DNA of 64,000 nt from the NCBI GenBank assembly GCA_038231435.1, contig JBBRLJ010000003.1, positions 1 to 64,000 on the forward strand, written 5' to 3'. Made by a program: the position numbers and the translations under genes. The stretch comes from Planctomycetota bacterium. GTDB taxonomy: Bacteria > Planctomycetota > UBA11346. The notes beneath the pieces were generated by a model that saw nothing but the letters and a program-made list of their open reading frames with translations, searched no databases and was not told the origin of the DNA. Of this stretch, positions 79 through 49,497 are shown in pieces (position 1 is the first letter of the stretch; the number at the start of each line of letters is the position of its first letter).

Positions 79-244
79 CCCATCGCTCCGCGATGGGGCG
101 GGCGCCGAGGGGCGGTCGGCGGATACAATCGGCGTAGCCGATCCGCCGACGATGTCGCAGCGCAGCGGAGACATCGAGCCCCGACAAAGCCCGAGGGGTA
201 GGCCCGTTAGGGCCGTAGGGGCGAAGCCCCTGACTGTAAACAGC
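79..244 (+). repeat. Structured element family 1, copy A (core 99-193)
   Basis: Aligns without gaps over the core to 19409-19503, with compensatory stem changes. Confidence 0.85.
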
Positions 245-1552
245 TCACTTGCCGATGCAAAAGCGGGAGAAGATCTCGTCGAGGATCTCGTCCGGGGTGG
301 TGGCGCCGATCAGCTCTCCGAGCAGGCCGGCGGTGGCGCGCAGATCCTCGGCGAGCAATTCGTCGTCAGGGAGCCCGGCCGGGTGTCCGAGCATGCCCTC
401 GAGCACGGCCAGGCATTCCGCGAGCAGGCGTTGCTGGCGGGGCTCTCCGCCCGACACGCCACCCAGGCGCGCAGAAAGCAGGCCGAGCAGCGCAGGGATG
501 CCCTCGCCGGTGACCGCGGACACCGCGAGCGTGGCGCGTGGATCGGGCAGGCCGAGATCGCTCTTGGTGGCGAGCACCAGCGTGCGCTCGGGCGGCATCG
601 GCCACTCCGCCGACGCAGACGCGGGCAATGGAGCGTCGGGCGCCGAGCAGGCGAGCACCAGCGAGGCGCTGCTCATCATTGCGACGGCGGTGGCGATTGC
701 CGCGCGATCCAGTCCGTCGCTCGCATCCATCCAGCCGGCGGTGTCGATCAGCCTGATCAGGCGGCCGTCCACCAGGAACGGTTCGTCGAGGGCGTCGCGG
801 GTGGTGCCGGGCACCGCGCTGATCAGGGCCGGAGCGCCGGTGAGCCGGGCGAAGAGCGCGGACTTCCCCGCGTTGGCGGGGCCGGCCAGGCATACCACCG
901 GGACGCCATCGGTCGCGATCACCGCCAGCCGCCAGCGCGACAACATGCCGGCGAGCGCCCTCAGTTCGGTGCGCATCGCTGCGGGGTCGAACGAGCGAAC
1001 GTCGTGCTCGTCCAAAAAATCCAATCCCGCTTCGACCTGCGCGCGCGCCTGCAGGAGCCGCGCGCGCACGCGCGAGATCTCGTTACCGAAACCGCCGCGC
1101 AGGCGCGCGAGTGCGAGCGCGGCGCCAGCCGCATCTGCCGCGCGCGTCACCGCCAACACCGCCTCGGCCTGATCGAGCGTGAGCCGCGCATTGGCCAATG
1201 CCTGGCGCGTGAACTCGCCCGGGGTCGCCGCCTCGGCGCCGGCGCGGCGCAGCGCGACGAGCGCCATCTCGACCAGGTCGCGGCTGCCCGGGATGGAGAT
1301 CTCGACGAGATCGTGGCCGGTGGCGCTGCGCGGACCCGGCGCGAGCAGCGTGCGGCACGGACAACGGCCGCCAGCGAAGGTCCACACGCGCGGCTCGCAC
1401 GACCACGGCGTTCCCGGCTCGAGACCAGCGGCGCGCGCGATGGCGACGGCGCGTGGTCCGCTCAGTCGCAGCAGCGCGACCGCTCCGCCAGTCGGGGTCG
1501 CGCAGGCGCAGATGGTGCGCTCGATCGCGGGAGCGGCAGCAGCGGAGGACAC
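245..1552 (-). CDS. mnmE: tRNA modification GTPase MnmE/TrmE
   Basis: ATPxG..A..RLSG N-terminus, PGEFTRQA, G1 GPANAGKS, PGTTRD, DTAG, C-terminal FSRFCIGK; follows yidC. Confidence 0.95.
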   Translation of the reverse strand: MSSAAAAPAIERTICACATPTGGAVALLRLSGPRAVAIARAAGLEPGTPWSCEPRVWTFAGGRCPCRTLLAPGPRSATGHDLVEISIPGSRDLVEMALVALRRAGAEAATPGEFTRQALANARLTLDQAEAVLAVTRAADAAGAALALARLRGGFGNEISRVRARLLQARAQVEAGLDFLDEHDVRSFDPAAMRTELRALAGMLSRWRLAVIATDGVPVVCLAGPANAGKSALFARLTGAPALISAVPGTTRDALDEPFLVDGRLIRLIDTAGWMDASDGLDRAAIATAVAMMSSASLVLACSAPDAPLPASASAEWPMPPERTLVLATKSDLGLPDPRATLAVSAVTGEGIPALLGLLSARLGGVSGGEPRQQRLLAECLAVLEGMLGHPAGLPDDELLAEDLRATAGLLGELIGATTPDEILDEIFSRFCIGK

Positions 1553-1564
1553 CGCCGCCGCCGG

Positions 1565-3373
1565 CTATTTCATGCCCAGCTTGCGCTTCACCATCTTGAT
1601 CTCGATGGTCGACAGCACCGCCTGGACGGTGAAGTAGAGGACCAGTCCCGCGGGCATGTTGTAGAAGATGACGCCGAAGATCACCGGCAGCCAGCGCATC
1701 ATCTTGAACATCTGCTCCTGCTGGGGATCGCCGCCACTCGGCGGCTTCTGCATCATGCTCATCCACACCGTCACGCCGATGTAGATCAGCGGCAGCGGAT
1801 TGATGGTGGCGAGCGCGCCGAAGAACGGCCAATGGAAGCCGAGGTACCAGACCTGGTCGGGCAGGGTGAGATCGCGCACCCACAAGAATGATTGTCCACG
1901 CAGATCGGCGAGATGGCTGAACATCTGGTAGAGGCCCATGAAGATCGGGATCTGGATAAAGATCGGCAGGCAGCCGCCGAGCGGATTGACGCCGTGCTTC
2001 TTCCACAACTCCATCTGCTTCATCGCCAGCTTCTGCTTGTCGGCCTTGTACTGCTCTTGCAGGTACTTCAGCTCGGGCTGCAGCTTCTGCATCTTCATCG
2101 TGCTCTCGTACTGCTTGTACGTGAAGCGATGCATGAGCGCCTTGACCAGGAAGGTCAAAAGGATGACGGCGACGCCATAGTAGTGCACCACGTGCGCAAT
2201 CAGATTCAGCATCCAAGCCATCAGCTTGGCCAGGCTCTTGAAGAACGAGTAGTAGGCGTCGGTGAACTCGAGGCGCTTCTCGGCGTCGTCGAGCTTGGCG
2301 AGCTCGGCATGGGTCATCGCGGTGACGCCCAGGGCCCACGAGACATCAAGCTCCGCGCCACTCTTCAGCGTGAACGGATCGAGATTCGCCGACGCGCCGT
2401 AGATGACGTCGATTTCGGCTTGGCTGTAGATGCCGGCGGGCGTCTCGTTGAGGAAGCCCCGATAGCTGGTCTCCTGGAACGAATCCGCCGGCACCTGCGC
2501 ATCGGCCTCGCGCAGGATCACGCCTTCGGGCGTGTACCACGACGCGAAGAACCGGCTCTTCAGGCCGAAATAATCCGGGTGGATGCCCTTGGGAAACTTC
2601 TCGACGATCCCGTCGCGTGGGAAGCCGAAGTGGTCGAGCGATCCGGTGGCCCCGCCTGAATGCACGACCGCCTTCTGGTAGCCGGCCTCGACGATCGGAT
2701 CGTCCTGGTGGATGCCGTCGATCGGGCGCAAGCGCGGCGTCACGGCCGCGGGCTTCTCGCCGAGGTTGCGCACCTTGAGCACGACGTGGACCTGCGGCTT
2801 CTTGGCGTCCATGCGGTAGGACATCGAGTAGCCCAGACCGAGCTCGGGCTTGCTGAAGGTCATGGTGCACGCGTCGGGAGCCTGCTCAGTGATCTGCCAG
2901 GCGCCCTCGGTCGCGGGCTCGGCCGCGAGACCCATGCCCTCGACCAGGTTGTGCATGTCGTATTCGGGGCGGAACCGGTCGAGCACCGCGAGCGGCTCCT
3001 TGCTGTCGATCTTCTCGCCCTCGGTCCGCCACTTGGGCAGCTGCACGGGATGCTCGCTGAGCAGGCGCATGCGCGCCACCGAGGCGCGATAGGTCGAGAG
3101 CTCGACGGTCGCGCTGGCATTGCCGATGGTGACGTGTGGCCACAGCGTGGTTCCCGAGCGTGCGCCCACGGGCTTGTCGAGTTCGGCGGACGGCGCGGAC
3201 GGTGCCTCGGATGCGGGCACGGGTGGGACGGCTTCGGGCTTGGCGGCTGGCTCCGCCACCGCGTCGGCGGCGCGCGCGACCGGGGTCAGCAGCGCGGCCA
3301 GCAACACTGGCAGCACGACCGCTGACAACAGCGACGACGACATCGACGACATCAGCGAGATCACGGAACGCAT
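1565..3373 (-). CDS. yidC: Membrane protein insertase YidC
   Basis: YGVAVILLT, KMQKLQPEL, HGVNPLGGCLPIFIQIPIF, FLWVRDLT, PAGLVLY; start set at ATG 3373. Confidence 0.95.
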   Translation of the reverse strand: MRSVISLMSSMSSSLLSAVVLPVLLAALLTPVARAADAVAEPAAKPEAVPPVPASEAPSAPSAELDKPVGARSGTTLWPHVTIGNASATVELSTYRASVARMRLLSEHPVQLPKWRTEGEKIDSKEPLAVLDRFRPEYDMHNLVEGMGLAAEPATEGAWQITEQAPDACTMTFSKPELGLGYSMSYRMDAKKPQVHVVLKVRNLGEKPAAVTPRLRPIDGIHQDDPIVEAGYQKAVVHSGGATGSLDHFGFPRDGIVEKFPKGIHPDYFGLKSRFFASWYTPEGVILREADAQVPADSFQETSYRGFLNETPAGIYSQAEIDVIYGASANLDPFTLKSGAELDVSWALGVTAMTHAELAKLDDAEKRLEFTDAYYSFFKSLAKLMAWMLNLIAHVVHYYGVAVILLTFLVKALMHRFTYKQYESTMKMQKLQPELKYLQEQYKADKQKLAMKQMELWKKHGVNPLGGCLPIFIQIPIFMGLYQMFSHLADLRGQSFLWVRDLTLPDQVWYLGFHWPFFGALATINPLPLIYIGVTVWMSMMQKPPSGGDPQQEQMFKMMRWLPVIFGVIFYNMPAGLVLYFTVQAVLSTIEIKMVKRKLGMK

Positions 3374-3496
3374 GCGTGCTACCCTTCGCTCGACACGGGC
3401 TTCACCGCGCGAGGCGGAAGCATCTCGCGGCTGCGGTGGAGACAACGGTTTTCGCCACACGGTTGAGGCCCCGGCCGGGCCGGCGACCGGCCCGGA

Positions 3497-3754
3497 TCAC
3501 TCCGCCGGCAGCTTCGCCAGGCGCGCGGTGAGGTCGGCCAGCATGGCGTCGAGGTACTGGTCCTCTTCCGGCGTGCGGTTGCCCGCGGACTTCTCCTTGA
3601 GCACCTGGAGCAGCTGCACGGTGTAGCGCGCGAATGGCGGATTCACCGTGCGTTCCCCGCTGAGCGGATTGGGGATCTCGCCGAACTGCATCAGCGCCTG
3701 GCTGGCGAGCCCGGAGAGGAAGTTGAGGAAGTTCGCAGCAGGGACGTCAGCCAT
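3497..3754 (-). CDS. DUF1844 family small protein
   Basis: F..FLSGLASQALMQFGEIPNP...ARYTVQLLQVLKEKSAGNRTPEE pattern typical of DUF1844. Confidence 0.8.
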   Translation of the reverse strand: MADVPAANFLNFLSGLASQALMQFGEIPNPLSGERTVNPPFARYTVQLLQVLKEKSAGNRTPEEDQYLDAMLADLTARLAKLPAE

Positions 3755-3886
3755 CGCCGCATGATCTCGCTGCAGGCGCGGGCACAAGCCACCGCCCCGG
3801 CCCTGGCGCCTGGTGACAAGCGAGAGGCGTTGGGCCCCCGACCGTTCGCCCTGGAGCAGCTCCGGCATGCGTGCTACGCTCGAGCG

Positions 3887-5539
3887 ATGTCCCTAGGCGC
3901 GGTGTATTGGCAGATGTGGCGGTCGGGGGCGAACACCGTCCGCCACTTCGTGGTCGAGCAGAAGCTGCGCGGCGCGGCGATGGTGTTCGTGGTGGGAGTG
4001 GTGTGGGCGCTGCTGTCGGCGCTGTTCCTCGGCCTGCTGTGGTTCCTCGGCCAGGACGAATACCTGGCGCTCAAGGCGCGCCTGCTCGAGAGCCTGCTGG
4101 CGCTGTTCTTCTTCACGCTGTTCTTCCTGGTGACGATCTCGGATGCGGTGCTGGTGTGGTCGGCGCTGTTCCGCACGCGGGCGGGCGCGTTCCAGGCGGC
4201 GCTGCCGCTGAGCGACGTCCAGCTCTACTGGGCGGCATCGGTCGAGGGCGGCTTCTGGGCAGGATGGGCGGTGATGGTGCTGGTCGCGCCGTTGGTGGGC
4301 TCGCTGGCCACTGAGGCCGCCTCGCCACTGCTGTTCGTGCCAGCCGCCGCTGCGGTGATGGCCGCGCTGATCGCCTGCTGCATGGCCGCCGGGGCGCTCG
4401 GCGCGATGGTGCTGGCGCGCGTCGTGCCGATCATTGAACGTCGGCTACGCTGGATCCTGGTGACGTTGGCGCTGATCGCGATCGCGGCGGGCTGGCGGAT
4501 CGCGCACGGTTATGCCCACGCCCAGCCGACCCAAGTGCTGGGCGACGTCATCGGGCGGCTGCGCTTCGCCGAGAGCCCATGGCTGCCGCCGGCGTGGGGC
4601 CAGCATGCGCTGATCGCGGCGAAAGCATCACGCTGGGGCGAGTGGCTGCACGACATCGCGCTGCTGGCGTCGACGGCAGGCGCGTTGGCGATCGCCGGCG
4701 AGACGGTGGCGCGCCGCCGGCTGCGCTGGGATCTCGACGCGCTCGCTGGGCGCGCGCGCGTGCGCGGCAGGCGCGCGAGCAGGCCATGGCGGCTGCTGCC
4801 CCTGTTGCCGCGCGATCTCGCCCTGCTCGCGGCGAAGGACCTGCGCCTGTTCATCCGCGATCCGACGCAGGTGATGCAGTTCGCGATGTTCTTCGGGCTG
4901 CTCGGATTCTACATGCTGATGCTGCCCAGGCTCGGTACCGCGTTCCAGGAGCACGAATGGTGGCGACCGGTGGTGTCCATCTTGAACCTGACTGCGGTGG
5001 CGATGGCGCTCGCCACCTTCACCGGGCGTTTCGTCTACCCGCTGCTGAGTCTCGAGGGCCGGCGGCTGTGGGTGCTCGCACTCGCCCCCTGGCCACGCAG
5101 CCGGGTCGTCACCGCCAAGCTGGTGTTCGCCCTGATGGTGGCGCTGCCGGTGAGCGTCGGACTGGTGGTGTTGTCAGGAACGCTGCTGCATCTCCCTCCG
5201 CTGGTGGTCGCCTACCAGACCTTGGTGATCGTCGGCCTGGCCGTGGGCCTGGCCGCCGGCGCGCTCGGACTCGGCGCACGCCTGGCGGATTATTCCCAAG
5301 ACAACCCCGCCAAGCTCGTCGCCGGCTACGGCGGCACCGTGAACCTGCTGGCGAGCCTGGTGTTTTCAGGTCTGCTGATCTCCGGAGCCGCCCTGCCCCT
5401 CATCCTGCGCGCCGGCCCCGCCATCTGGGCCCTGGGCGTCGCCTGGACCCTCGCCATTTCCACCCTCTGGACCTGGGCCGCCCTCCGCCTCGCCTGGCGC
5501 TGGTTCGGCGCCCTCGACCGCAACCCCACCCTGCGCTAG
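3887..5539 (+). CDS. Putative ABC-exporter-type multi-pass permease
   Basis: Many TM segments; KDLRLFIRDP, SLEGRRLW and LAP..R...AK motifs. Confidence 0.7.
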   Translation: MSLGAVYWQMWRSGANTVRHFVVEQKLRGAAMVFVVGVVWALLSALFLGLLWFLGQDEYLALKARLLESLLALFFFTLFFLVTISDAVLVWSALFRTRAGAFQAALPLSDVQLYWAASVEGGFWAGWAVMVLVAPLVGSLATEAASPLLFVPAAAAVMAALIACCMAAGALGAMVLARVVPIIERRLRWILVTLALIAIAAGWRIAHGYAHAQPTQVLGDVIGRLRFAESPWLPPAWGQHALIAAKASRWGEWLHDIALLASTAGALAIAGETVARRRLRWDLDALAGRARVRGRRASRPWRLLPLLPRDLALLAAKDLRLFIRDPTQVMQFAMFFGLLGFYMLMLPRLGTAFQEHEWWRPVVSILNLTAVAMALATFTGRFVYPLLSLEGRRLWVLALAPWPRSRVVTAKLVFALMVALPVSVGLVVLSGTLLHLPPLVVAYQTLVIVGLAVGLAAGALGLGARLADYSQDNPAKLVAGYGGTVNLLASLVFSGLLISGAALPLILRAGPAIWALGVAWTLAISTLWTWAALRLAWRWFGALDRNPTLR

Positions 5540-5613
5540 CCAAAATCCCGCAACGGGATGTTGGTAGCGGACAGCGCCCCGAGCCTTGTCTCCACCCCAC
5601 CCTTCTCCCCGGC

Positions 5614-5662
5614 TCCCGGGGGGCAGCGCGGAGCGCGATGTTGGGGGGCCGTAGCCCCCCAA
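5614..5662 (+). repeat. REP-like element family 2
   Basis: TCCCGGGGGGCAGCGCGGAGCGCGATGTTGGGGGGCCGTAGCCCCCCAA; one mismatch to 8096-8144. Confidence 0.85.
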
Positions 5663-5704
5663 CTGACAGCTTCCTCGTGCGCCCTCCCTGCGTACGACCA
5701 GGAC

Positions 5705-8011: not shown

Positions 8012-8012
8012 G

Positions 8013-8144
8013 ATGGGGGCTACGGCCCCCATCATCGCGCTCCGAAATTCAGAGCAGCGCGCAGCGCCAGGTCCCACACCTCCCAGACCGTTTCTTCCCG
8101 GGGGGCAGCGCGGAGCGCGATATTGGGGGGCCGTAGCCCCCCAA
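8013..8144. repeat. Inverted pair of family 2 elements (partial minus copy 8013-8044, plus copy 8096-8144)
   Basis: The reverse complement of 8013-8044 closely matches the 3' part of 8096-8144. Confidence 0.8.
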
Positions 8145-8201
8145 TTGAAAGGCCCTGGACGGCACTGGTGGCATGCCAAGACTCGCGCGACGAGAGAGAC
8201 C

Positions 8202-9842
8202 ATGCACTCCATCCAGCTGTACAATACGCTCAGCCGCAAGAAGGAGCCCTTGAAGCCGCTCAAGGCGGGTTCGATCGGCATGTACGTCTGCGGCGTGACT
8301 CCGTACGACGATTGCCACATCGGCCACCTGATGGGTCCGGTGGTGTTCGATGCGATCGCGCGCTGGCTACGCGCGCGCGGGCTCGCGGTGCGCTTCGTCA
8401 ACAACATCACCGACATCGACGACAAGATCATCGACCGCGCCAAGCGCGGCGGCGAGCCCTGGGACGCGATCTCGAAGCGCTACACCGAGCAGTACTTCGC
8501 CTTTCTGAAGCGCCTGCGCATCGCCACCATCACCGATCATCCGCGCTGCACCGAGTACATCCCGCAGATGGTCGCCTACATCCAGGACCTGGTCGGGCGC
8601 GACCGCGCCTACGTGGCCGCCGATGGCGTGTACTACGACGTCCAGAAACAGCCCGGGTACGGCAAGCTCTCAGGCCGCAAGCTCGACGAGATGATCGCCG
8701 GCAGCCGCATCGGCCGCGACGTCGAGCTACGGCATCCCGCCGATTTCGCGCTGTGGAAACTCGCCAAGCCGGACGAGCCGAGCTGGCCCAGCCCGTGGGG
8801 CGCCGGGCGCCCGGGCTGGCACATCGAATGCAGCGTCATGTCGCGCGAGACCCTCGGCGAGACCTTCGACATCCACGGCGGCGGCGACGATCTGAAATTT
8901 CCCCACCACGAGAACGAGATCGCCCAAGGCGAGGCGCATGGCGGGGATTACGCGCACTGCTGGATGCACAACGGCCTCATCCAGTACGAGGGAGTCAAGG
9001 TCGGCAAGTCCGATCCGCGCATGAAGGACCCCGCGTTCGCCGGCCGCTTCAAGGCCGCGCACCTGCTCGACACCTACGGCGCCGCCACCATCCGCTTCCT
9101 GCTGCTGCAGGGCCACTACCGGCGGCCGAGCGACTTCGCCGAGAAGGCGCTCACTGCGGCGCGCACCGCGCTGGGCAGGCTGCACGCGCAACTCGGCGAG
9201 TCGATGACGCAGCCCATCGATGGGTCGCTGGACGAAGCCGCCAAGCTGACGCGCATCGCGGAGCTCGCCCTGCCCGCGCCGCTGGCCGCGCACCGCGACG
9301 CATTCTTCACGGCGATGGACGACGACTTCGGCACCGGTGGAGCGATCGCGAGCCTGTTTTCGATCGCCGCCGAGGCGCGCAAGCTCGACGCGGACGAGGC
9401 CCGCGCTGCCACCCTGCTGGTGCGCGATCTCGGCCGACTGATCGGGCTGTTCATGCCCGGCGATGAGAAAGACACCTCGGCGCAATCCGATGCCGGATCC
9501 GCGTCGCTCGACGGCGTAATGGCGCTGATCCTGGATCTGCGCCAGCAGGCACGCGCGAACCGCGCCTTCGCCATCAGCGATCGCATACGCGAAGCGCTGG
9601 CCAAGGCGGGCATCGCCATCAAGGATGCCAAGGACGGCGCCTCGTGGGAGCGAGCCGGTTCGGCCGAGGACGCGCTCGCCCAGGCGATGGCGCTGGTGAT
9701 CGAATTACGCCAGCGCGCGCGGACCGACAAGGATTTCGCGACCAGCGACCATATTCGCGACGCCCTCGCGAAAGCCGGCGTCGCCATCGCTGACGGCAAG
9801 GACGGTGCGACTTGGAGCCACACGAGAGCGCAGACGTTGTGA
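8202..9842 (+). CDS. cysS: Cysteine--tRNA ligase with a duplicated C-terminal domain
   Basis: LYNTLSR, YVCGVTPYD, HIGH, NITDIDDKII, DFALWK, GRPGWHIECS, DIHGGG.DL.FPHHENE. Confidence 0.97.
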   Translation: MHSIQLYNTLSRKKEPLKPLKAGSIGMYVCGVTPYDDCHIGHLMGPVVFDAIARWLRARGLAVRFVNNITDIDDKIIDRAKRGGEPWDAISKRYTEQYFAFLKRLRIATITDHPRCTEYIPQMVAYIQDLVGRDRAYVAADGVYYDVQKQPGYGKLSGRKLDEMIAGSRIGRDVELRHPADFALWKLAKPDEPSWPSPWGAGRPGWHIECSVMSRETLGETFDIHGGGDDLKFPHHENEIAQGEAHGGDYAHCWMHNGLIQYEGVKVGKSDPRMKDPAFAGRFKAAHLLDTYGAATIRFLLLQGHYRRPSDFAEKALTAARTALGRLHAQLGESMTQPIDGSLDEAAKLTRIAELALPAPLAAHRDAFFTAMDDDFGTGGAIASLFSIAAEARKLDADEARAATLLVRDLGRLIGLFMPGDEKDTSAQSDAGSASLDGVMALILDLRQQARANRAFAISDRIREALAKAGIAIKDAKDGASWERAGSAEDALAQAMALVIELRQRARTDKDFATSDHIRDALAKAGVAIADGKDGATWSHTRAQTL

Positions 9843-12688: not shown

Positions 12689-12690
12689 GC

Positions 12691-18286: not shown

Positions 18287-19045
18287 ATGCGGTTGAGCTT
18301 CCTCATCGCGTGTCTGCTGCTTGCCTTGCCGGCACCTCCAAGCGCCGGTGCCGAGTTGCCCGCGCAAGAAGCACCGTGGTCGGGCATGATCGCGGTCTCG
18401 GAAACCATCAACGGACCCAACGAGAGTGGCGGCGACCAGCTGGAGCTCGAGCATTTCGCGCACACGATCGAGGAACGCCTGCGCCAGGCGCGTAGCGAAC
18501 TGGCCGCCGCCCCACCTATCATCGCCCGCGTGGTGCGCGAGGACATCGGCTTCTACGAGACCGAGCTCGAACGCGTGGTCGCGGCCCGCGGTGGCGCACT
18601 TACCATCGGTCGGACGTCCTACCTGATCAAGGGCGATCGCATGCTGCTGCATGCCGACGGCGCGCGGCTGCTGATCGACCGCACCAGCGGCGAGGCGAGC
18701 GGCCTGGTCGATGGCCAGCCGAAGACCGCGAAGCTGCAGGCGATGCCGGCCCAGGAATCGCTCGACCGTTATCCCGCGGGCCCCGAGATGCTGGGCTACG
18801 AGACGCGGCGGCTCAAGCGCACGATCAAGGGCCGCAGCTACGTCATCGATGTCGCTCCAGGCCTGCCCAACCCGTACGCCATCGGGCTGATCGAGAATGG
18901 ACAGGACGACGACCTGGTGCGCCAGCTGTCCGAGCTTCCGGGCCTGCCGATGATGGTGAGCGAGACCAGCGGCGAGGCCACGCGCAGCCTCTGCGTCACC
19001 TGCGTCGATCGTCATGAGGTCGCTGACGCCGTCTTCAAGCCGTGA
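18287..19045 (+). CDS. Exported hypothetical protein
   Basis: Signal-peptide-like N-terminus and coding-like codon bias. Confidence 0.7.
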   Translation: MRLSFLIACLLLALPAPPSAGAELPAQEAPWSGMIAVSETINGPNESGGDQLELEHFAHTIEERLRQARSELAAAPPIIARVVREDIGFYETELERVVAARGGALTIGRTSYLIKGDRMLLHADGARLLIDRTSGEASGLVDGQPKTAKLQAMPAQESLDRYPAGPEMLGYETRRLKRTIKGRSYVIDVAPGLPNPYAIGLIENGQDDDLVRQLSELPGLPMMVSETSGEATRSLCVTCVDRHEVADAVFKP

Positions 19046-19051
19046 TTGCGA

Positions 19052-19299
19052 GGGCTGTGCCCCCGGGCCCCCACGGCCTTTGTCGTCCTTTTTTCTGGCC
19101 ACCGGGTGGCCAGAAAATTTGCGTGATGGGCTCCGCCCATTGTTCACGCAAACCAGGACTCGGCGGCCGCCACTGTTTCGGGGGCTGTGCCCCCGGGCCC
19201 CCACGGCCTTTGTCGTCCTTTTTTCTGGCCACCGGGTGGCCAGAAAATTTGCGTGATGGGCTCCGCCCATTGTTCACGCAAACCAGGACTCGGCGGCCG
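19052..19299 (-). repeat. Two tandem family 1 elements (D1 19052-19169, D2 19182-19299)
   Basis: Identical 118-nt copies, period 130; the reverse complement aligns to 49235-49354. Confidence 0.92.
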
Positions 19300-19388
19300 G
19301 CGGCTGGCGCCGCGGTTTAAAGGATCCGAAGGCTTCTGGCCGCCGAGTGCTCTTTCTCACCTTGTAAAAGTAATTCACCACCGGGGGC

Positions 19389-19542
19389 CCCACCGCTCTG
19401 CGGTGGGGCGGGCGCCGAGTGGTGGTGGGCGGAAACGATGGGTGGGGCCCATCCGCCCACGTTTTCGCCGGCTTCCGGCGAAAACGAGCCACGACAAAGC
19501 CCGTGGGGTAGGCCCGCAGGGCCGTAGGGGCAGAGCCCCTGA
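19389..19542 (+). repeat. Structured element family 1, copy B (core 19409-19503)
   Basis: Colinear with copy A with covarying stems; a partial minus copy follows at 19551-19578. Confidence 0.85.
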
Positions 19543-19774
19543 AAATAACAGTTCACGCAAACCAGGACTCGGCGGCCGGCGGCGTTGCCGCGGCTTTGAC
19601 GAGCGGGCAACCGACAGGCTTCGACGGCTCGGATAACCAAAGCGCGTCGACCGGGTAATGAGTGGCGATGATCTCCTGCAGTCCGACTAGGAAGACGGAC
19701 GGCGGACGGTCTCATCCCCCTTCTGCTTGCGAGCCTTGCGGCCTCGTCGATAGTCCGCGCCCGAGGTAACCCGC

Positions 19775-33049: not shown

Positions 33050-34555
33050 ATGACACGCGCCCACCGCCTTCCCATCACCTGCTCACTGCTGGCAGCCCTC
33101 GGGCTGGCGGCTTCCGCCACGGCTGCTGATCGGGACCACGCTCAGATGTGCTCGATGGGTGCCTGCGATGATTCCGGCAGGCCATCCGCATCGAGCGCAT
33201 CGAGCGCATCGAGCGATTTCCGCGCCGCTCACATGAGTGATGGCAAGGACCGCACAGTCTCGGCCAAGGCGGACGTCACCAGTCCAGGAAATCGGGCGAC
33301 GGGGCGGCACGGTCATGCCGGGCCGGGCTACTCTGAGTCGGGTTACGCCGGAGATGCGGGCCACGCTGGAGATGAGGGCTACGCTGAAAATCGCACGGCC
33401 ATGACCGTTCACCCCCCTCTGACGCAGAGGGCCGCCAACATGCGCGACAACAAGGATGCCACCACCTCTGCCAAGGGTGCCGATGACTGGATCGCCGCCC
33501 GCCATGGCGCGGTCCACGAATCAGCCATGGTTGCCGATCTCGGTGAGTTTCGCGCAGCCAACATGGCTGATCACAAGACCAGCCTGGAGCCGAAGGCCGA
33601 GGCCAGGGGCGAGGAGACTGGGATCGGATCCAGCCGAGAGCGAGCAGCTGCGGGATGGCAGTCCGGCTTGGTACTGAACCCGGAATCCGTTTCGGAAGGT
33701 CCGATCACCGATGCATCCGCCACCGAGGCCCGGATCGCCACTGGTCCGGATTCGTCTGCGCCTGCGGCTCCAGCGACGAGGCACGAACAGGGACTCTGGA
33801 ACAGCGGACACGATGCCGACGTGAGCCAAGCGCCCGCGGCGGTCCAAGCGACCATCGCCCGCGAGGCGGCGGGCCGAGACCTCCATACGCTATCGGCCAA
33901 GGTCGAGAACGGACGGACGATCTACGACGCCCGTATCGCGCGACCTGGCGACGATGAACTCCGCCTGAAGGTCGCCGAGGATGGTTCCATCGTCTGGCGG
34001 AACGATCTGAAGGAGCAGGCCACGGCTCCGCTGATCCAGCCCACGGACACGAGCAGTGGATCGACGTCGACGACGGTGGCTCCCGCGGGGCCGATGAAGG
34101 CCGCGGATGAGCAGCAGGCGATCGGCCACGCCTCTGGCTCGGGGAGCTCCGGTTCCTCGACCGGTGCGGATCCCTCGCACTCGACTCCCGCCGATCAGTC
34201 GCGCCAGGATCCTTCGACCGCGCGCGCGAACGCCGAAGTGGATGAGGCGAAGATGAGTTCACTCGACACCAGCGACACCAGCGGCAATGGAGTCCACGAT
34301 GCCCATGCGGTGCCGGCCGCCACGGACACCGACGGCTGGTTGGGCTTGGGCTCGGGCAACCGCGTGGCCATCGAGGAGGTGCCGAAAGCGGTGAAGGATG
34401 CGATCCTGCGCGAAGCCGACGGCAAGGCGATCTCGCGCATCGACCGGGACAGCGAGCAGGGCAAGACCATCTACAAAGCGCGCATCCGCGTAAACGATGG
34501 CAAGGACTTGAAGCTCAAGTTCGCCGAGGACGGCACGGTCGTCTCGCGGAAGTAG
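33050..34555 (+). CDS. Secreted low-complexity protein with two PepSY-like domains
   Basis: GGAGG RBS, signal peptide, two P.AV...I.REA.G......G.TIY.ARI.....L.LK.AEDG repeats. Confidence 0.75.
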   Translation: MTRAHRLPITCSLLAALGLAASATAADRDHAQMCSMGACDDSGRPSASSASSASSDFRAAHMSDGKDRTVSAKADVTSPGNRATGRHGHAGPGYSESGYAGDAGHAGDEGYAENRTAMTVHPPLTQRAANMRDNKDATTSAKGADDWIAARHGAVHESAMVADLGEFRAANMADHKTSLEPKAEARGEETGIGSSRERAAAGWQSGLVLNPESVSEGPITDASATEARIATGPDSSAPAAPATRHEQGLWNSGHDADVSQAPAAVQATIAREAAGRDLHTLSAKVENGRTIYDARIARPGDDELRLKVAEDGSIVWRNDLKEQATAPLIQPTDTSSGSTSTTVAPAGPMKAADEQQAIGHASGSGSSGSSTGADPSHSTPADQSRQDPSTARANAEVDEAKMSSLDTSDTSGNGVHDAHAVPAATDTDGWLGLGSGNRVAIEEVPKAVKDAILREADGKAISRIDRDSEQGKTIYKARIRVNDGKDLKLKFAEDGTVVSRK

Positions 34556-34562
34556 CTTTCTG

Positions 34563-34645
34563 TTGGGGGGCTACGGCCCCCCAACATCACTGTCGGTTGG
34601 GGGGCTACGGCCCCCCAACATCGGCCTTCGGCCTGCCCCCCGGGA
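34563..34645 (-). repeat. Family 2 elements (partial 34563-34588, full 34597-34645)
   Basis: Reverse complement of the 5614 element with GCGC-GGA-GCGC replaced by GGCC-GAA-GGCC. Confidence 0.85.
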
Positions 34646-34700
34646 GGCGGGGAGAAGCAGGGTTTGGAGCAGGCACCTGGAGCGCTGCTCGGCGCGAAAG

Positions 34701-40826: not shown

Positions 40827-40865
40827 CCAGAGCGTACGCACGCAGCGGCGGAACAGCGACGACGG

Positions 40866-40890
40866 GCGACGGCCCCTGACAGGCCGTCGC
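40866..40890. terminator. Hairpin between convergent genes
   Basis: GCGACGGCC-7 nt-GGCCGTCGC; no clear U tract. Confidence 0.4.
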
Positions 40891-40912
40891 TCAGCTCAGC
40901 ATCTCAGCGCGT

Positions 40913-43900
40913 TCACTTGGCGGCCTTCAGCTGCGGTTCCAGCACCTTCTTCATGAATTCGTATTCCTCGGTGAAGGCCGGATCGTCCTTGAACTCGGTG
41001 GCCGCGACCTCGGCGACGTACAGCGCCTGCTTCGGCCCGCCGTTCAGTGCCGCCCGCCAGGCGATCCAGAAATACTTCGGCTTGTAGTTGACCTCCTCCT
41101 TCCAGATCGCGATCACCTGCTTGTACCAGTCCATCGGCAGGAAGCGCGCGGTGTCGCCCAGCCACTGCGCGGTGTCATCGCGCAGGCGCTTGTCGTTCTT
41201 CTCGACGACGAAGTGCAGGCGCTCGCGCACGATCTTGGGATCCTGGGCGACGAGCGCGGTGATCAGGCGGCCGAGGTGGTACTCGGACTCGATCTGCGGA
41301 TGCTCGATGTCGAGCTTCTTGCACGCGTCCATCGCCTCCTCGAGATGCTTGCCGAGAGCCGCGACTTCGGCCGGATCGAGCGCTGTCTTATCCTTCCCGA
41401 ACAGCTCGGTCAGGCGCGAGAACCAGAACGGCACCGAGATGCGGATCCACGGCAGATCGAGGTTCAGCTGCGCGAGGCCGCCGATGCGCTTGTCATGATC
41501 GTGCTCACCGCTCTTCGGTATCTCGGCGCCTTCGAGCAGGGCCAGGAAGCGGTCTTTCTGGTGGACGGTGCCGTCCTTGGCGGTGACCGATTCCTTGCCC
41601 AGGATGGCGGCGTAGTACTGGCCGGCCGAGGCGTAGCGCATCATCGCCTCGTCAGGCTCGTCGATGTCGCGGAAGGCGATGGTGTTCAGCCACAATTGGA
41701 CACTCTTCGCCAGCTCCTTCAGGGTCGGATCGTTCGGCAGCGCGTCCTGCCCGGCGCTCTTGAGCGTCGCGATGCCGACGGCCGAGAACATCTGGGTCAG
41801 GCGGCGAAGCTGCTGGAACTGGCCGGACTGCTCCCAGGCCTCCTTGCTGAACTCCGCGCTCTCGAGCCACTCACTGATGCGCTCGATGCGCGATGACATC
41901 GCCTTGAGCATGGTGTCCTTGACGGTGCGCAGGGCCAGATCGTCGAGGTGGCCGTTGAGTGCTGTGGCCAGCTCGACTCCGAGCTGCACCGCCGAAAGAC
42001 CGAGCTTGTCCTTCAGCGCCGGCAGCTGCTTGTCCAGGACGTCCAGGGTCTGCGCCCGCGCCTCGTCGAGCTTGCCGGCCTCGATCAGGTGCTGGATGAG
42101 CTCGACGTTCATGTACAGCTTGCTGGTCGGCTCGGCCTCGGGTGTCCGCTCGATCGCCCAGCGGTGGTACTGCGCGGCCAGGTCGTACTGGCCGGTGTAC
42201 GAATAGAGGCCAGAGAGCTCGCGGTAGTTGGCGTTGTCCTGGTCGCCGTCGGCGATCAGCTTGAGCATCTTGCTGATGCCGCGCTGGTAGGTCTGGAAAT
42301 GCCAGTCCTTCTGCACGTCGATCATCACCCGCGCGTATTCCGGCTCGGCGAAGATGCGGTAGCTCAGGCGCCAGGCCGAGCGGGTGTTCTCGCCTGAGAA
42401 GCGCAGCAAGAGGCCCAGCCCATTGGGATCGAAGGTTTCGCTCTCATCGAAATTCTTGTAGGCCTTCTCGAGCGCGTGTTTCAGGTCGGCGTCGACGAAC
42501 TCCATCGCCGGACCGGTCTGGAGGATGTAAACGTGCCACTGGCTGTCCTCCTTCTTGTCGGCCCATGCTAGCGCGGCGTGTTGCGGCAGGCTGATGACAT
42601 GCGCGGTGCGGCCTTGGCGCTCGGCGATCGCCTGGTAGAGCTCCGAGAGGTCGTCACAGTCGCCGCGAACCATGCCGCCAGTGGCGGTCGAGATGGTCTG
42701 GACGGACGTCTGGTGGATATCGCCCTTGTCGCGCTTGTTGCCGATCAGGTATGGGAAGCGGCTGTCTGGGCTGTCGTACACGTAGGTGAAGAGGAACTCG
42801 CCCACCAGATCGAGATGGGCTGGATCGGGCAGCGCCTGGGCGGCCTGGGTCAGGAACCGCTCGGCTTCCTCGGGCGAGCCGTTCTTCGGGGCGAGCAACT
42901 CGCCGCCCTCGCTCTCGATGCCGAGGATGTCGCCGTTTAATCCGACGAGCACGATGTTCGGCGGAATGAAATCGGCGACCACGTTCTTGGTCGCGCCCTT
43001 GCCGCGGCCAGGCACGTTCTTCCGCCATTCGTCCTTGTCCGCGATGAACGCGCCGCCGGCCTTCCAGGTGGCCAGCAGCTGGCCGCTGTGACTCTGATAG
43101 AGCCTGGCTCCGAGCGGGGACTTCGGCGTGGCGGCGGGGTCGGAGCCCGGTGGCAGGTCGATCACGACGTTCATGTCCGGGATCGAATGGTACATCGGCT
43201 GCGGCTGGGGCCGCATGACGGCGCTGCGCGCGGGAGTGGAGAGGATCCAACCGCCATAGCCAAATGCGTTGGTCACCTTGGCCAGCCGCATCGGCTTGCC
43301 TTCGCTCGTTCCTTCGAAGAGATCGGCTGGCTGGAAGCGCTCGGCTTCGGTGATCGCCGACTGCAGGCTCTCGATCTGCGCCTTGTGCTTCTCCGAGAAC
43401 ACGCCACCCAACCAGCCGAAACGCGACACGCGTCGCGCGAACGCGGGACTTACCTCGTCAAGGTCGATGTTGCCCTCGTCATTGCCCATGCGCTTGAGCA
43501 CGTCCTCGACGGTCTTGCGCCCCAGTTCGTCGAGGGGCGTGTTGGGCAGCTCCTTGACCAGGACCTGGACGGCGGCGGCGACCTTGGCCTTGTCCTCGCC
43601 GCGATCGGCTGGCTTGGCCGTGGACTTCTTGAGCACGCCCTCCTCGAGCACCAGCGCCGACGCCGAGCGCAGATGGTAGCCGGCGATGATGCTCTCGGCG
43701 AGCAGCAGGTCGGCAGCCTGGAGACCGGCTTCCTTGGCGTGCGCGATCAACTTTGGCAGCGCCGCGACGGCATCGACGCGGTTGTCCTCGAGCAGCTTGC
43801 GCGTCACTGGCAGGCGGCCGATGTCGGTCTCGAGCACCGGACGGTCGCTGAAGATCACCGGCGCGAATCGGTACGAGGCACCCTTGCCGTCCTCCCAGTA

Positions 43901-44134
43901 GACCTTGTCCTCGCGCTTGACCACGCTGGCCACCGAGGGCAGCTGGTTCAACAGCTGGTCGACACCGATGCCGGCGTCGGTGGCCGCGCCGGGAGTGGCT
44001 GGAGCCACCGGCGATACCGGTCCGGCGGGTTCCGGATTGGGGGCCTGCTCCACGGCGTGGGTCGATAGCGCCGAAAAGGCCGCGAGGAGCGTGGCGAGGA
44101 CAGCCGGCAAGATCTTCCGGGGCACGGTCTTCAT
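40913..44134 (-). CDS. Large exported protein with a transglutaminase-like Cys motif and TPR-like helical C-terminus
   Basis: Signal peptide, RGDCDDL motif, TPR-like YRELSGLYSYTGQYDLAAQYHRWAIE; strong codon bias. Confidence 0.7.
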   Translation of the reverse strand: MKTVPRKILPAVLATLLAAFSALSTHAVEQAPNPEPAGPVSPVAPATPGAATDAGIGVDQLLNQLPSVASVVKREDKVYWEDGKGASYRFAPVIFSDRPVLETDIGRLPVTRKLLEDNRVDAVAALPKLIAHAKEAGLQAADLLLAESIIAGYHLRSASALVLEEGVLKKSTAKPADRGEDKAKVAAAVQVLVKELPNTPLDELGRKTVEDVLKRMGNDEGNIDLDEVSPAFARRVSRFGWLGGVFSEKHKAQIESLQSAITEAERFQPADLFEGTSEGKPMRLAKVTNAFGYGGWILSTPARSAVMRPQPQPMYHSIPDMNVVIDLPPGSDPAATPKSPLGARLYQSHSGQLLATWKAGGAFIADKDEWRKNVPGRGKGATKNVVADFIPPNIVLVGLNGDILGIESEGGELLAPKNGSPEEAERFLTQAAQALPDPAHLDLVGEFLFTYVYDSPDSRFPYLIGNKRDKGDIHQTSVQTISTATGGMVRGDCDDLSELYQAIAERQGRTAHVISLPQHAALAWADKKEDSQWHVYILQTGPAMEFVDADLKHALEKAYKNFDESETFDPNGLGLLLRFSGENTRSAWRLSYRIFAEPEYARVMIDVQKDWHFQTYQRGISKMLKLIADGDQDNANYRELSGLYSYTGQYDLAAQYHRWAIERTPEAEPTSKLYMNVELIQHLIEAGKLDEARAQTLDVLDKQLPALKDKLGLSAVQLGVELATALNGHLDDLALRTVKDTMLKAMSSRIERISEWLESAEFSKEAWEQSGQFQQLRRLTQMFSAVGIATLKSAGQDALPNDPTLKELAKSVQLWLNTIAFRDIDEPDEAMMRYASAGQYYAAILGKESVTAKDGTVHQKDRFLALLEGAEIPKSGEHDHDKRIGGLAQLNLDLPWIRISVPFWFSRLTELFGKDKTALDPAEVAALGKHLEEAMDACKKLDIEHPQIESEYHLGRLITALVAQDPKIVRERLHFVVEKNDKRLRDDTAQWLGDTARFLPMDWYKQVIAIWKEEVNYKPKYFWIAWRAALNGGPKQALYVAEVAATEFKDDPAFTEEYEFMKKVLEPQLKAAK

Positions 44135-44481
44135 GGCTTCTTCTTCGTATTCATGGCTGGAGGTACGAGGCTGTAAGGGTTACCGTCAGGCGTGGATGCG
44201 CTGACGATCGCTGCGGGTTGAGGCGGTCAAGACGCGCGCCTGGCAGCTTCGGCGACCCCGCTGCGACGGCATGGGTCCAACGTCCCCTCCTCTGGGTGGT
44301 TCGGAAGTCAGAAAGGGTGACGTCGCTGCCGGCAGAGGCTTTCATATGTGGCGAATGCCGCTATGAATGTCCTCCCCAAAAAATTCCCGACCAATCCCGA
44401 CAACATCCCGATCCAGGCCCCCGACGGCGATCCAGCTGTTCCAACAGCGCCATCAGCCCCAGATCGCAACCAGAGATCCCC

Positions 44482-46365
<1,884 letters not shown>

Positions 46366-46392
46366 TTCCGTCCGGCGCCGTTCCGGGGTTTC

Positions 46393-46428
46393 GCGATGGG
46401 AGGGCGCTCGAAAGCGCCCTCCCATCGC
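46393..46428 (+). terminator. Strong hairpin downstream of typA
   Basis: Perfect 16-bp stem GCGATGGGAGGGCGCT-CGAA-AGCGCCCTCCCATCGC with only a weak U tail. Confidence 0.6.
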
Positions 46429-46481
46429 TGTTCCGGGTGATGCCCGCTTTCCCGCGAGTCGCGGGCAGCGAAGCTGTAGCC

Positions 46482-47702
46482 ATGGCCACCTCGACGGCAC
46501 ACGTCCCGATGCGGGCGATCACCAAGGGGCCGCGCCACCATTGGTTCGGTTATTACGACAAATGGCAGATCAATCCCTCGGGCAGATACGTGCTCGGAAT
46601 GGCGGTCGATTTCGAGCACCGCTCGCCGCGCGCGGACGATGTCATCGAGATCGGCATGGTCGATCTGCGCGATGGCGACCGCTGGATCCGGTTGGGTGTC
46701 AGCCGTGCGTGGTCCTGGCAGCAGGGCTGCATGCTTCAGTGGCTCCCGGGATCGGCGAGCACGGTGGTGTGGAACGACCGCGTCGACGATCGTTTCGTCT
46801 GCCATGTCGTCGACGTCGCGGGAGAGGCCACTGGCGGCGCCGCCAGCGGTGGGAAGGCGGGGACCCGCCGCACGCTCCCCGCACCGATCTACGCGCTCAG
46901 CCCCGACGGACGCACCGCGGTATCGCCGGACTTCCGCCGCCTGAACGACACCCGCCCCGGCTACGGCTACGCCGGCCTGCCCGATCCGCGCCGCGACCTG
47001 GACGCGCCGACGGACACCGGCATCACCATCATGGACATGGCGACCGGCGCGCACCGACTGCTGATCCCGTTCTCGCGCGTCGCCGCCATGCCCTGCGCCC
47101 GCCACGACGTGGCCGGAAAGCATTGGTTCAACCACCTGCTCTTCAACCCCGACGGATCGCGCTTCATCTTCCTGAATCGTTGGCGGAACGCCCAGACCGG
47201 CGAGGGCTGGCGCACGCGCATGTTCACCGCCGCCGCCGACGGCAGCGACATCCGGCTGGTCGACGACTACGGCGGGGTCTCGCACTTCATCTGGCGCGAC
47301 CCGCGGCACATCCTCTCGTGGGCGTACGCCCGGCCCGAGGGCGATGGCTTCTTCCTCTACGACATCGACAGCGGCGGGGCGGAACTGGTCGACAAGGAGG
47401 CGATGCCGGTTGACGGTCACTGCACCTATCTGCCCGAAACATCGGCAAGCCCGCGATGGATCCTGAACGATTGCTATCCCGGCAAGGATCGGCTGCAGCG
47501 CATCTACATCTACCATGTCCCGAGCCGACGCCGGCTGCCGGTCGCCGATCTGCATGCGCCGCCTGGGTACGATGGCGAGTGGCGCTGCGACACCCATCCG
47601 CGCACCAGCCGCGACGGTGCCACGGTGGTGGTCGATTCCGCCCATGGCGGGAACGGACGGCAGCTGTATCTGCTCGACATCTCCGCGCTGCTCGAGTCCT
47701 GA
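46482..47702 (+). CDS. Beta-propeller protein, oligogalacturonate-lyase/TolB-like
   Basis: HHWFGYYD, AWSWQQG..LQW, NHLLFNPDG.RF.FL.RW, SHFIW, RCDTHPR. Confidence 0.65.
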   Translation: MATSTAHVPMRAITKGPRHHWFGYYDKWQINPSGRYVLGMAVDFEHRSPRADDVIEIGMVDLRDGDRWIRLGVSRAWSWQQGCMLQWLPGSASTVVWNDRVDDRFVCHVVDVAGEATGGAASGGKAGTRRTLPAPIYALSPDGRTAVSPDFRRLNDTRPGYGYAGLPDPRRDLDAPTDTGITIMDMATGAHRLLIPFSRVAAMPCARHDVAGKHWFNHLLFNPDGSRFIFLNRWRNAQTGEGWRTRMFTAAADGSDIRLVDDYGGVSHFIWRDPRHILSWAYARPEGDGFFLYDIDSGGAELVDKEAMPVDGHCTYLPETSASPRWILNDCYPGKDRLQRIYIYHVPSRRRLPVADLHAPPGYDGEWRCDTHPRTSRDGATVVVDSAHGGNGRQLYLLDISALLES

Positions 47703-47736
47703 ACGGCGCCGTCTGGCGCGCCGCGCCGACCCCGCG

Positions 47737-49089
47737 CTAGGGACCTTCGATCTTCACCACCAGGGCGGTGATGTCGTCGGCGAAGCCGTCGAGCGCATGC
47801 GCGCGCACGCCATCGATCATGCGCGTGATCACCGCAGCGGGGGCCTCATCCATCGCCATCAGCAGATCGCCCATGAATCGGCGGCGTCCGTATTCGCTTC
47901 CCGCCGGGTCAGCCGCCTCGAACAGGCCGTCTGTGAACTGCAGGAATGTGTCGCCGCCCTGCAGCTGCAACGTGTGCGGCTCGATGTTGGCGCGGAACAT
48001 TTCCCCTTTCATCAGGCCGATCGCCGGACCGGGCGTGCCCACCTGCATCAGGATCGATCGCCGGCGTGGATTCGCGAGCACGCCGGGGTGGTGGCCGGCG
48101 CAGACGCTGGTCATGACCTTGGTCTCGAGGTCGATGACCGCAGCGAACATGGTGATGAAGTACGAGGTATGCAGATCGTCGTGCACGTCGTCGTTGAAGC
48201 GACCCACGATCTCGGCGCAGGTGCCACCCTCGCGCACGGCGTGGCGGAGCGACTTGATGGTCGAAGCGACGATCATCGCCGCGCTGGTGTCGTGGCCGCT
48301 GACATCGCCCACCGCCAGGAACAGCGCAGACGTGCCTACCGGCACCAACTCGTAGAAGTCTCCGCCGACCAGGGAATGCGGCTCGTAATGCACGGCGATT
48401 GGAAAGCCCGGTATCTCGGGAATGCGCGGCAGCAGCTTCTCGATGACCGCCTTGGCGTGGGTCATGTCGATGACCGGCTCGGTCGAGACCGACGCAGGCG
48501 CGGACGCGGCCGGACGCGGCTCGGCGAGGGCGCTCGCGATCGGTGCGAAACAGCCGCTCGGAGAGACGGCTAGCGCGGCCTCCGTGACAAGGCGCGCCAG
48601 TTCAGCCTCGTCGAGCATCTCGAGCCTCGGCAGATGGGCATGCGCGAGCACCTGCGCCATCGAGCGCACGGTCGCCGCGTCCACCTTGCCGCCAGGAAGC
48701 GGGATGCCCCGGGTCCACCGGCCGTCGAACGGATTGAGCCATTGCCCATCCTTGCGGAAGATGCGCAGCCTGCCGTCCTTGGCGATCCTGCCCTTGAGCA
48801 GATGGGCCCAGCGGAACGCCTCGATCTCGGGCGCGGTGCGCAGCGCGAACTTCATCCACGGACGGTTCTGCAGCAGATGTTCGCGTCCCGGCGAACGGTC
48901 GCCGAAGGCAGCCTTGACCACCGTGCCGGTGAACGGATCGATCCAGTGTCCACGGTCCAAGGTCCACACCGAGAACAAGGGATCCTCGGCTAGCCATTCG
49001 TCCACACGACGTTCCTCGGCAATCGGGGACGCGCCGGACGCGGAGATGGTCGGAGGCGTCGGATGTCGTCGTGGCGGTGGGCGGTTCAT
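47737..49089 (-). CDS. PP2C/SpoIIE-family phosphatase with an unrecognised N-terminal domain
   Basis: VGGDFY, GDVSGH, AGH, FTDGLFEA, DDIT. Confidence 0.88.
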   Translation of the reverse strand: MNRPPPRRHPTPPTISASGASPIAEERRVDEWLAEDPLFSVWTLDRGHWIDPFTGTVVKAAFGDRSPGREHLLQNRPWMKFALRTAPEIEAFRWAHLLKGRIAKDGRLRIFRKDGQWLNPFDGRWTRGIPLPGGKVDAATVRSMAQVLAHAHLPRLEMLDEAELARLVTEAALAVSPSGCFAPIASALAEPRPAASAPASVSTEPVIDMTHAKAVIEKLLPRIPEIPGFPIAVHYEPHSLVGGDFYELVPVGTSALFLAVGDVSGHDTSAAMIVASTIKSLRHAVREGGTCAEIVGRFNDDVHDDLHTSYFITMFAAVIDLETKVMTSVCAGHHPGVLANPRRRSILMQVGTPGPAIGLMKGEMFRANIEPHTLQLQGGDTFLQFTDGLFEAADPAGSEYGRRRFMGDLLMAMDEAPAAVITRMIDGVRAHALDGFADDITALVVKIEGP

Positions 49090-49220
49090 GGGGAGCCGGT
49101 AGCCGGCTATCCTAATGATACCATGGATTCGCAACGATATGCCCCCCATTCAACCCGCAGCGAACCGACCGGCGAGGCAAGGTTCGGGTAAACCCTGGGC
49201 CCGGATGTCCTCGTTCAACC

Positions 49221-49497
49221 ATGGCGAAGCCATCCGGCCGCCGAGCCCCGGTTTGCGTGAACAATGGGCGAAGCCCATCACGCAAACGTCGTGGCCGCCT
49301 GGCGGACAAGACGAAGGGCGACAAAGGCCGTGGGGGACCGGGGGCGGAGCCCCCGTGTATGCCATGGCGAAGCCATGCGGCCGCCGAGCCCTGATTTGCG
49401 TGAACAATGGGCGAAGCCCATCACGCAAACGTCGTGGCCGCCTGGCGGACAAGACGAAGGGCGACAAAGGCCGTGGGGGACCGGGGGCGGAGCCCCC
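49221..49497 (+). repeat. Two tandem family 1 elements (C1 49221-49354, C2 49364-49497)
   Basis: Near-identical copies, period 143; cores 49235-49330 and 49378-49473. Confidence 0.92.

Follow-up and report, generated by a model that had tools for sequence, protein, structure and literature searches.

The 64,000-nucleotide stretch analysed here (the window) is positions 1–64,000 of contig JBBRLJ010000003.1 (assembly GCA_038231435.1), from a Planctomycetota bacterium of the UBA11346 lineage whose genome we label G000. Behind the stop codons of mnmE, of an AraC-family gene and of a further open reading frame (ORF) lie copies of a structured repeat, hereafter the element (Table 1). An earlier note, made from the sequence alone, had placed six complete cores with a shared fold, and all six lie at the coordinates and on the strands that it gave. 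Its observation is confirmed, and the family is larger than it reported: three partial copies (2–76, 19551–19598 and 55095–55192) had escaped it, and the whole element measures 135–165 nt, not 95–96 nt. In each unit a 5′ leader hairpin, which is optional, precedes a three-way-junction core with covarying stems; a predicted triplex module follows on the 3′ side, and then an A-rich tail, ~11 nt long, whose last two bases are AG. The note had the core fold right but overlooked the leader hairpins and the triplex, as well as the fact that copies adjoin stop codons.

Table 1. Element copies and their parts in the window
Feature	Position	Strand	Details
Type A copy, 3′ half (P4 to triplex and tail)	2–76	+	Cut off by contig start
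5′ leader hairpin	79–98	+	Optional module, varies among copies
Type A core: P1, GCCGA/GACAAA internal loop, P2, three-way junction, P3, P4	99–193	+	P3 with −10-like bulge and C(GTA)G triloop; P4 with GNA/GNA zipper-like loop
Predicted class I purine-motif triplex module	195–231	+	Third strand 195–199, then looped-out hairpin; purine strand 217–221, C(GAA)G loop, pyrimidine strand 227–231
A-rich tail	231–244	+	Directly meets natural mnmE stop codon (245–247, minus strand)
Type B copy	19047–19169	−	Core 19074–19169, imperfect triplex; hairpin 6 nt from stop of ORF 18287–19045 (+)
Type B copy	19176–19320	−	Core 19204–19299, triplex 19180–19203, 5′ leader hairpin 19300–19320; head-to-tail with copy 19047–19169
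Type A copy with tail	19388–19550	+	Leader hairpin 19388–19408, core 19409–19503, triplex 19505–19540
Type B 5′ fragment	19551–19598	−	Cut at P3 bulge, joined there by the tail of the type A copy
Type B copy	49219–49358	+	Leader hairpin 49219–49234, core 49235–49330, triplex 49332–49354
Type B copy, 98% identical tandem unit	49362–49501	+	Core 49378–49473; hairpin end 4 nt from stop of AraC-family gene (minus strand, ends 49502)
Decayed 5′-truncated copy	55095–55192	−	Triplex module kept

Of 222 GCCGA…GACAAA motifs in the 5.2-Mb genome, six lie in the window. A profile built on 141 seed copies gave 326 matches in this genome (249 of them near full length), in 194 intergenic clusters. Of these clusters, 83 are located at contig ends; assemblies break at these repeats, and the genomes examined here are 61–96% complete (G000, 88%). 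The repeat is not an assembly artefact, because contig depths added up to 3,955 at one core position, compared with ~16 for unique contigs, a sum that is not itself a copy number.

A pattern search found the element in 22 of 36 genomes from the family of the window and in none of 24 from other families, with 0–1 control matches; a looser pattern matched 30/47 family genomes, with counts of 0–182 and some single matches by chance. When related genomes were searched with a covariance model, four of six family genomes matched, as did none of the 144 other genomes in a phylum sample. The element has been retained, with fixed loops, over many genera of one Planctomycetota family, and its copy number ranges from 0 to >300 between close relatives, with no match even in some genomes that are 90–96% complete. 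In a scan of sequence collections, the loci scored by the profile carried Planctomycetota or unclassified titles, the exception being L087. This locus seems to be identical DNA to contig C44 of G000, as L004 (contig C38 of G031) seems to be to contig C33 of G000; the overlap suggests binning carry-over in two other genome bins, and both loci were excluded from later counts. A low-scoring Planctomycetota locus, L112, represents a more distant variant of the element. Viral contigs gave three pattern matches, none scored by the profile and none found with a core-only pattern, and the plasmid and phage collections gave no match.

The earlier note had not recognised the repeat as a known family, and our searches agree: Rfam 15 returned no match in the window at the gathering score, and no known ribozyme family, and by E-value (≤5) positions 18900–19700 returned only four chance matches (E 0.9–2.9). 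No description of the element was found in the literature searched, which covered few subscription journals. Resemblances to a K-turn and to 6S RNA were dropped, as strand B has four extra bases and Rfam gave no match.

With DNA energy parameters, the P1–P4 fold of the earlier note was the minimum-energy fold in five of the six cores and nearly so in the sixth (19409–19503); z-scores were −3.8 to −7.7 (200 shuffles). Conservation of the two loop strands holds in more copies, GCCGAG and GACAAAG being invariant in a cross-genome alignment of 56 sequences, and covariation of the stems was borne out by two-sided changes at 26 of its 35 pairs (score 0.465, compared with 0.136 when shuffled and ≤0.111 when slid). 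This set is biased, because its members had been chosen for both loop motifs and for paired P1 and P2; in 211 genome copies delimited by the same anchors with no pairing filter, covariation followed the same pattern, the second P2 pair being G–C in 81, T–A in 62 and C–G in 41 of them. Covariation, these copy-wise pair counts and the DNA folding energies support selection on a single-stranded fold, as had been proposed.

The loops of the element are of a DNA type. Triloops were GNA in 443 of 794 cases (56%), almost all closed by C–G, and ANA in a further 60, compared with 5.7% GNA among 12,043 background triloops, and tetraloops were seldom GNRA (16/260) or UNCG (2/260). According to PMC3201870, C–G-closed GNA loops form exceptionally stable DNA mini-hairpins. 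G·A juxtapositions flank P2 on both sides and were present on the junction side in 164/170 G000 copies and 187/196 copies of other genomes. P4 is free in sequence and has opposed, zipper-like GNA triplets in 49/170 G000 copies and 49/196 others; a zipper-type motif with such triplets is known from DNA (PMC11014236).

The P3 bulge and the next two paired bases gave a −10-box profile in 140 copies, with A at −11 in 140/140, A at −9 in 92%, T at −12 in 93/140 and a variable −10 position; positions −8 and −7 were fixed by the search pattern. In other genomes the bulge read TAnnnT in 171/181 copies, a proportion partly built into the scan pattern, and no −35 box was found for it. The core is modular, because at four metagenome loci (L313, L331, L348 and L409) it is attached to a different 3′ module that has no triplex hairpin.

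The functional strand, for which the earlier note had found mixed evidence, is now settled as the one running from GCCGA to GACAAA, because of the loop classes, the triplex geometry and an excess of G–T over A–C pairs in other genomes (57 to 8 in 1,960 pairs); within G000, a first parse gave 57 to 59 in 4,440 pairs and a second 27 to 16. The G–T excess fixes the strand and is compatible with RNA too, but loop classes and triplex favour DNA, and the fold reads best as single-stranded DNA (ssDNA) on this strand.

The 3′ module runs from a G-run through a loop, a purine run and C(GNA)G to a pyrimidine run, which is the order of a class I purine-motif intrastrand triplex. Its putative third strand mirrored the purine strand in 194 of 219 distinct ends, compared with at most 141 in 1,000 permutations. 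The two strands switch together (third strand/purine strand AGGGG/GGGGT or GGGGA, AGGG/GGGT, GAGGG/GGGAG and GGGGA/AGGGG), in at least five matched variants that include A·A–T and T·A–T triads and are drawn from different genomes and both architectures, types A and B. A generic scan found 359 triplex-like modules between genes and six inside genes. On this sequence evidence we take the 3′ end to be an intrastrand triplex of the purine motif, with covariation between its third strand and the hairpin; in PMC4666352, such triplexes are stated not to form in RNA and to arrest polymerases.

None of the 194 clusters lies inside a gene as called here, and convergent gaps hold 47 of 111 clusters, compared with 229 of 2,065 background gaps. 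After 20 ends at contig ends and 66 internal ones were set aside, 197 outer 3′ ends were counted, of which 133 lie within 20 nt of a convergent stop codon and four at the 3′ end of a tRNA gene (137/197 in total). Random points were near a stop or tRNA end in 149 of 3,000 cases (~5%), and 5′ ends of the element in 4 of 51; on metagenome contigs, 46 of the 99 ends with a called gene abut a stop or tRNA end. The abutting stops are TAG or TAA in 78/133 cases, compared with 1,009/3,749 in the background. Gene starts are faced by 33/197 outer ends, and a few ends adjoin terminators, in a test that has no power at a 2% background. The REP repeats of Escherichia coli reportedly also lie close to stop codons.

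At mnmE the stop codon is natural and the element follows the gene in 3 of 30 orthologous loci; two genera have this site filled, with copies of different sequence types. At ilvD, where it is present in 1 of 30 orthologous loci, the last codon and stop look tail-derived and a fold-back duplicate of the gene end lies inside the array. In genome G006, the tRNA genes of a long array next to an HNH-like ORF (L251:5500–10350) have four copies of the element at their ends, and other inserts with GNA hairpins lie between them.

Copies are patchy at orthologous sites, having been gained or lost, and form head-to-tail arrays of up to 16 units (in G006). Array units join at AG/C (the slash marks the junction), one 11-nt tail recurs in several unlinked arrays, and junctions on the folded strand read AG/C or AG/T. 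Median identity to the nearest unlinked copy was 95%, with 7 of 120 copies identical. Among truncated copies, 37 lack the 5′ part, compared with 13 lacking the 3′ part; remnants of older 3′ hairpins lie upstream of 48/138 copies (4.8% background), and short re-duplications of a hairpin half plus tail follow 20/107 ends of a sister family and 10/139 type A ends. The ends of the element are unrelated, with no terminal inverted repeats, and the flanks of 33 solitary copies compared by eye had no consistent target-site duplication, on which two grounds a DDE-mobilised MITE was rejected. An ISL3-family insertion sequence uses type B copies as its target: every one of its ten detected ends falls between P3 and P4, at one shared A/T-rich site (G000 contig ends C6, C7, C8, C11, C18, C20, C60, C64, C70 and C85).

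For a partner enzyme, Y1 loci were examined in overlapping sets of 31, 104 and 30 from incomplete assemblies, and none was bracketed by the element; one copy lies 340 bp upstream of one subclass-2.3 Y1 gene. We rejected a RAYT/TnpA partner, the one intact subclass-2.3-like Y1 of G000 having its own short inverted ends, and this Y1 type does not track the element because it is present in 40/47 family genomes. In family genomes, short class-3-like Y1 genes (L017, L021, L024 and L027) are flanked by inverted hairpin repeats of their own, unrelated to the element. A RAYT-derived single-copy gene without the HUH and catalytic tyrosine motifs (L272:1498–2337; G000 contig C25), present in 27/47 family genomes and 0/33 others, adjoins what we take from their sequences to be lpxA-like and queG-like genes and is a domesticated, probably inactive Y1 fold. 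It was also rejected, because this query did not detect it in g2, g3 and g5, three genera with element-rich genomes among them, and because genomes with no element have it too. Y2 genes numbered none in G000, where the control was silent too, and occurred in one of five relatives, unlinked to the element. Reverse transcriptase (RT) genes were found neither in G000 nor in two of five element-rich relatives, and RT loci elsewhere were unlinked. The element was present at 0/11 GIY-YIG loci, DUF559 occurred in 6/48 genomes but not in G000, and clustering of 423 neighbouring proteins gave housekeeping genes only, as did a Pfam search with 83 of the 187 metagenome neighbours called. With genomes this incomplete and broken at these very repeats, a partner can be missed.

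Several known systems share parts of this picture. As described in PMC3733652, PMC6006769 and PMC3479197, REP, BIME and REPIN–RAYT repeats resemble the element in that they lie between genes by the hundred, chiefly downstream of genes and in convergent gaps, form clusters and ssDNA hairpins and serve as an insertion-sequence target, but element arrays, unlike theirs, are mostly head-to-tail. In the same sources a REP is a 20–40-nt palindrome with a GTAG/GTRG or CGTC foot tag, whereas the element is a multi-branched fold of 135–165 nt with a triplex; type A copies have GTAG before two 4–5-bp hairpins and type B copies have no such tag. TnpA-REP is described there as cutting C/T on the hairpin strand, a sequence mismatch with the fixed AG end on the folded strand of the element, and REP/REPIN repeats flank their cognate Y1 gene, whereas the element flanks no Y1 locus among those examined in these incomplete assemblies. 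BoxC, PIT and TM-ECO repeats likewise place a G/C-rich purine-motif intrastrand triplex in an extragenic repeat (PMC4666352); theirs is of class II with the TM consensus, whereas that of the element is of class I (third strand 5′) with five triads, is fused to a three-way-junction core and has strong gene-end polarity. IS91, ISCR and Helitron elements share with it the lack of terminal inverted repeats and of clear target duplication, unequal ends and tandem arrays (PMC5714925). An IS91-type end sequence was not recognised in the element. Helitrons have a hairpin ~10 nt before the 3′ end, as the element has. Ssn/SRM (NTS) repeats are also oriented, high-copy ssDNA hairpins, but they are 20–50 nt long and flank a single-domain GIY-YIG nuclease gene (PMC11893778), whereas the element is longer and absent from the 11 GIY-YIG loci. 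Single-strand origins of rolling-circle plasmids are folded ssDNA with a promoter-like box, like the core (PMC5714925). The element is chromosomal and multi-copy, unlike single-strand origins and ssDNA promoters, with no plasmid, phage or viral match and no −35 box. Frpo and N4 hairpin promoters likewise combine folded ssDNA, a promoter-like box and GNA-type loops. The best reading is of an element REP-like in lifestyle with a BoxC/PIT-like triplex end, outside the described families; it fell short in tests of membership in REP–RAYT, BoxC, MITE and Ssn.

We propose, with a probability of roughly 0.6, that this is a mobile ssDNA element, non-autonomous and one-ended, for which a trans-acting enzyme would do the joining until a coding end stops it; of the three options raised in the earlier note, a mobile ssDNA element fits best, and a structured non-coding RNA or ribozyme fits poorly. 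The GNA strand would be released as ssDNA, by strand displacement or rolling circle, and the triplex with its weak A-rich tail would form the single active end, which a trans-acting ssDNA nuclease or strand-transfer enzyme would join either to the 5′ start of the element itself, giving circles and arrays, or to DNA just downstream. Repeated one-sided joining would strip dispensable DNA until a coding end halts it, and may sometimes rewrite the last codon and stop. Less firmly, the core may be a signal that a protein binds. The likeliest such signal is a −10 box, pre-melted within a hairpin, at which host RNA polymerase would prime the second strand, and the core probably serves in this way as plasmid single-strand origins do (PMC5714925).

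Several results weigh against this proposal. No Y1, Y2, RT, GIY-YIG or DUF559 gene was bracketed by the element in the genomes searched, and none of the 83 metagenome neighbours scanned with Pfam (187 called) matched a mobile-element family. The deletion-ratchet step has no promoter support: adjacency of ends to promoters was apparent by eye but was rejected after its test, in which 3 of 48 start-facing ends began at a −35/−10 pair (p = 0.07; three at control offsets). Tandem pairs had no age gradient (19 versus 14), and four DNA sequencing runs of the same strain gave neither an empty site nor a circle junction. The permutation tests ignore relatedness, type B copies of G000 have no −12 T, and an excess of G–T over A–C is also expected of RNA.

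A tentative alternative is that the element is a minimal, gene-less ssDNA replicon of ~135 nt that has its own signals for second-strand priming and for termination, uses host enzymes only and targets genes and tRNAs at their 3′ ends. Its priming signal would be the pre-melted −10 box in the three-way-junction fold and its termination signal the covarying DNA triplex; if this is true, the element would be to DNA what structured RNA families are to RNA, a naturally occurring structured molecule whose tertiary motifs are conserved.

Somewhat more doubtful is a parasite that needs no enzyme of its own. Its GNA strand would fold while still nascent, its triplex and A-rich tail would force the strand off the template, and host polymerases, RNA polymerase serving as the primase, would copy the strand and re-insert it by template switching. 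The absence of a partner gene from every search made would fit, as would the re-duplicated hairpin halves, the fold-back copy of the ilvD gene end within one array and the polymerase arrest by purine-motif triplexes described in PMC4666352. Template switching, however, suits local arrays better than spread to ~190 unlinked sites, the incomplete assemblies may miss an enzyme, and the fixed AG end suggests that an enzyme cuts there.

We consider it unlikely that the gene-end polarity arises from RNA, the 3′-OH of a cellular RNA (an mRNA trimmed or cut at its stop codon, a tRNA end or a terminator) priming the copying of the element strand and the product being written into the gene. The polarity fits, with the gene-sense strand as primer and the GNA strand as template, and ends abut stops, tRNA ends (four in G000 and more elsewhere) and a few terminators, with the enrichment of TAG and TAA given above. 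An RT is missing in G000 and in two of five element-rich relatives, however, the 33 start-facing ends do not fit, and an A-rich tail that supplies the stop also explains the stop-codon bias.

It is just as improbable that a structured RNA element (a non-coding RNA, a ribozyme or a SINE-like retroelement) is transcribed on the GCCGA strand. Stem covariation and the G–T excess in other genomes would suit it, and the A-rich 3′ tail, 5′ truncation and internal −10-like box recall short retroelements; but the triloop classes and the triplex type are DNA-like, with GNRA and UNCG rare, read-through from the abutting gene would yield the opposite strand, the internal box would begin a transcript in mid-fold, and there is neither an Rfam match nor a linked RT. 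A host-maintained signal, such as a site of replication restart, priming or termination spread and homogenised by recombination, is very improbable, for although the element is retained in many genera with fixed loops and the site after mnmE is occupied in two of them, copy numbers swing from none to hundreds among close relatives, even nearly complete genomes have none, and decayed and truncated copies are common.

Triplex covariation, DNA-type motifs, the −10 profile and end polarity were each tested in this analysis. Few natural ssDNA folds have been documented in which covariation shows tertiary motifs to be conserved, and covariation at the level of triads is evolutionary evidence for selection on an intrastrand DNA triplex, a matter left open for the BoxC/PIT repeats. 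For the one-ended mobile element that we favour, whichever protein recognises the core or cleaves the tail would represent a new activity in ssDNA processing. How repeats come to lie behind stop codons becomes testable through this strict orientation to stop codons and tRNA ends, which a second repeat family of the same genome shares.

This second family is represented in the window at 5590–5669 (+), 8096–8151 (+) and 34549–34669 (−) and has ~120 ends in the genome; its 5′ cargo differs, but it carries a triplex end of the kind described above and a fixed tail of 9 nt that closes with AG, and it is oriented to stop codons in the same way (57/116 ends). Repeats in other phyla, too, may commonly have triplex-like ends. 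A chance pattern match in a Streptomyces record (L104) ends in two successive G-runs, C(GCA)G and a C-run. G000 also has two more low-copy families of complex GNA-hairpin repeats with G-run modules, at C1:330995, C34:49777, C11:62628, C57:8715, C9:90318 and C75:1089.

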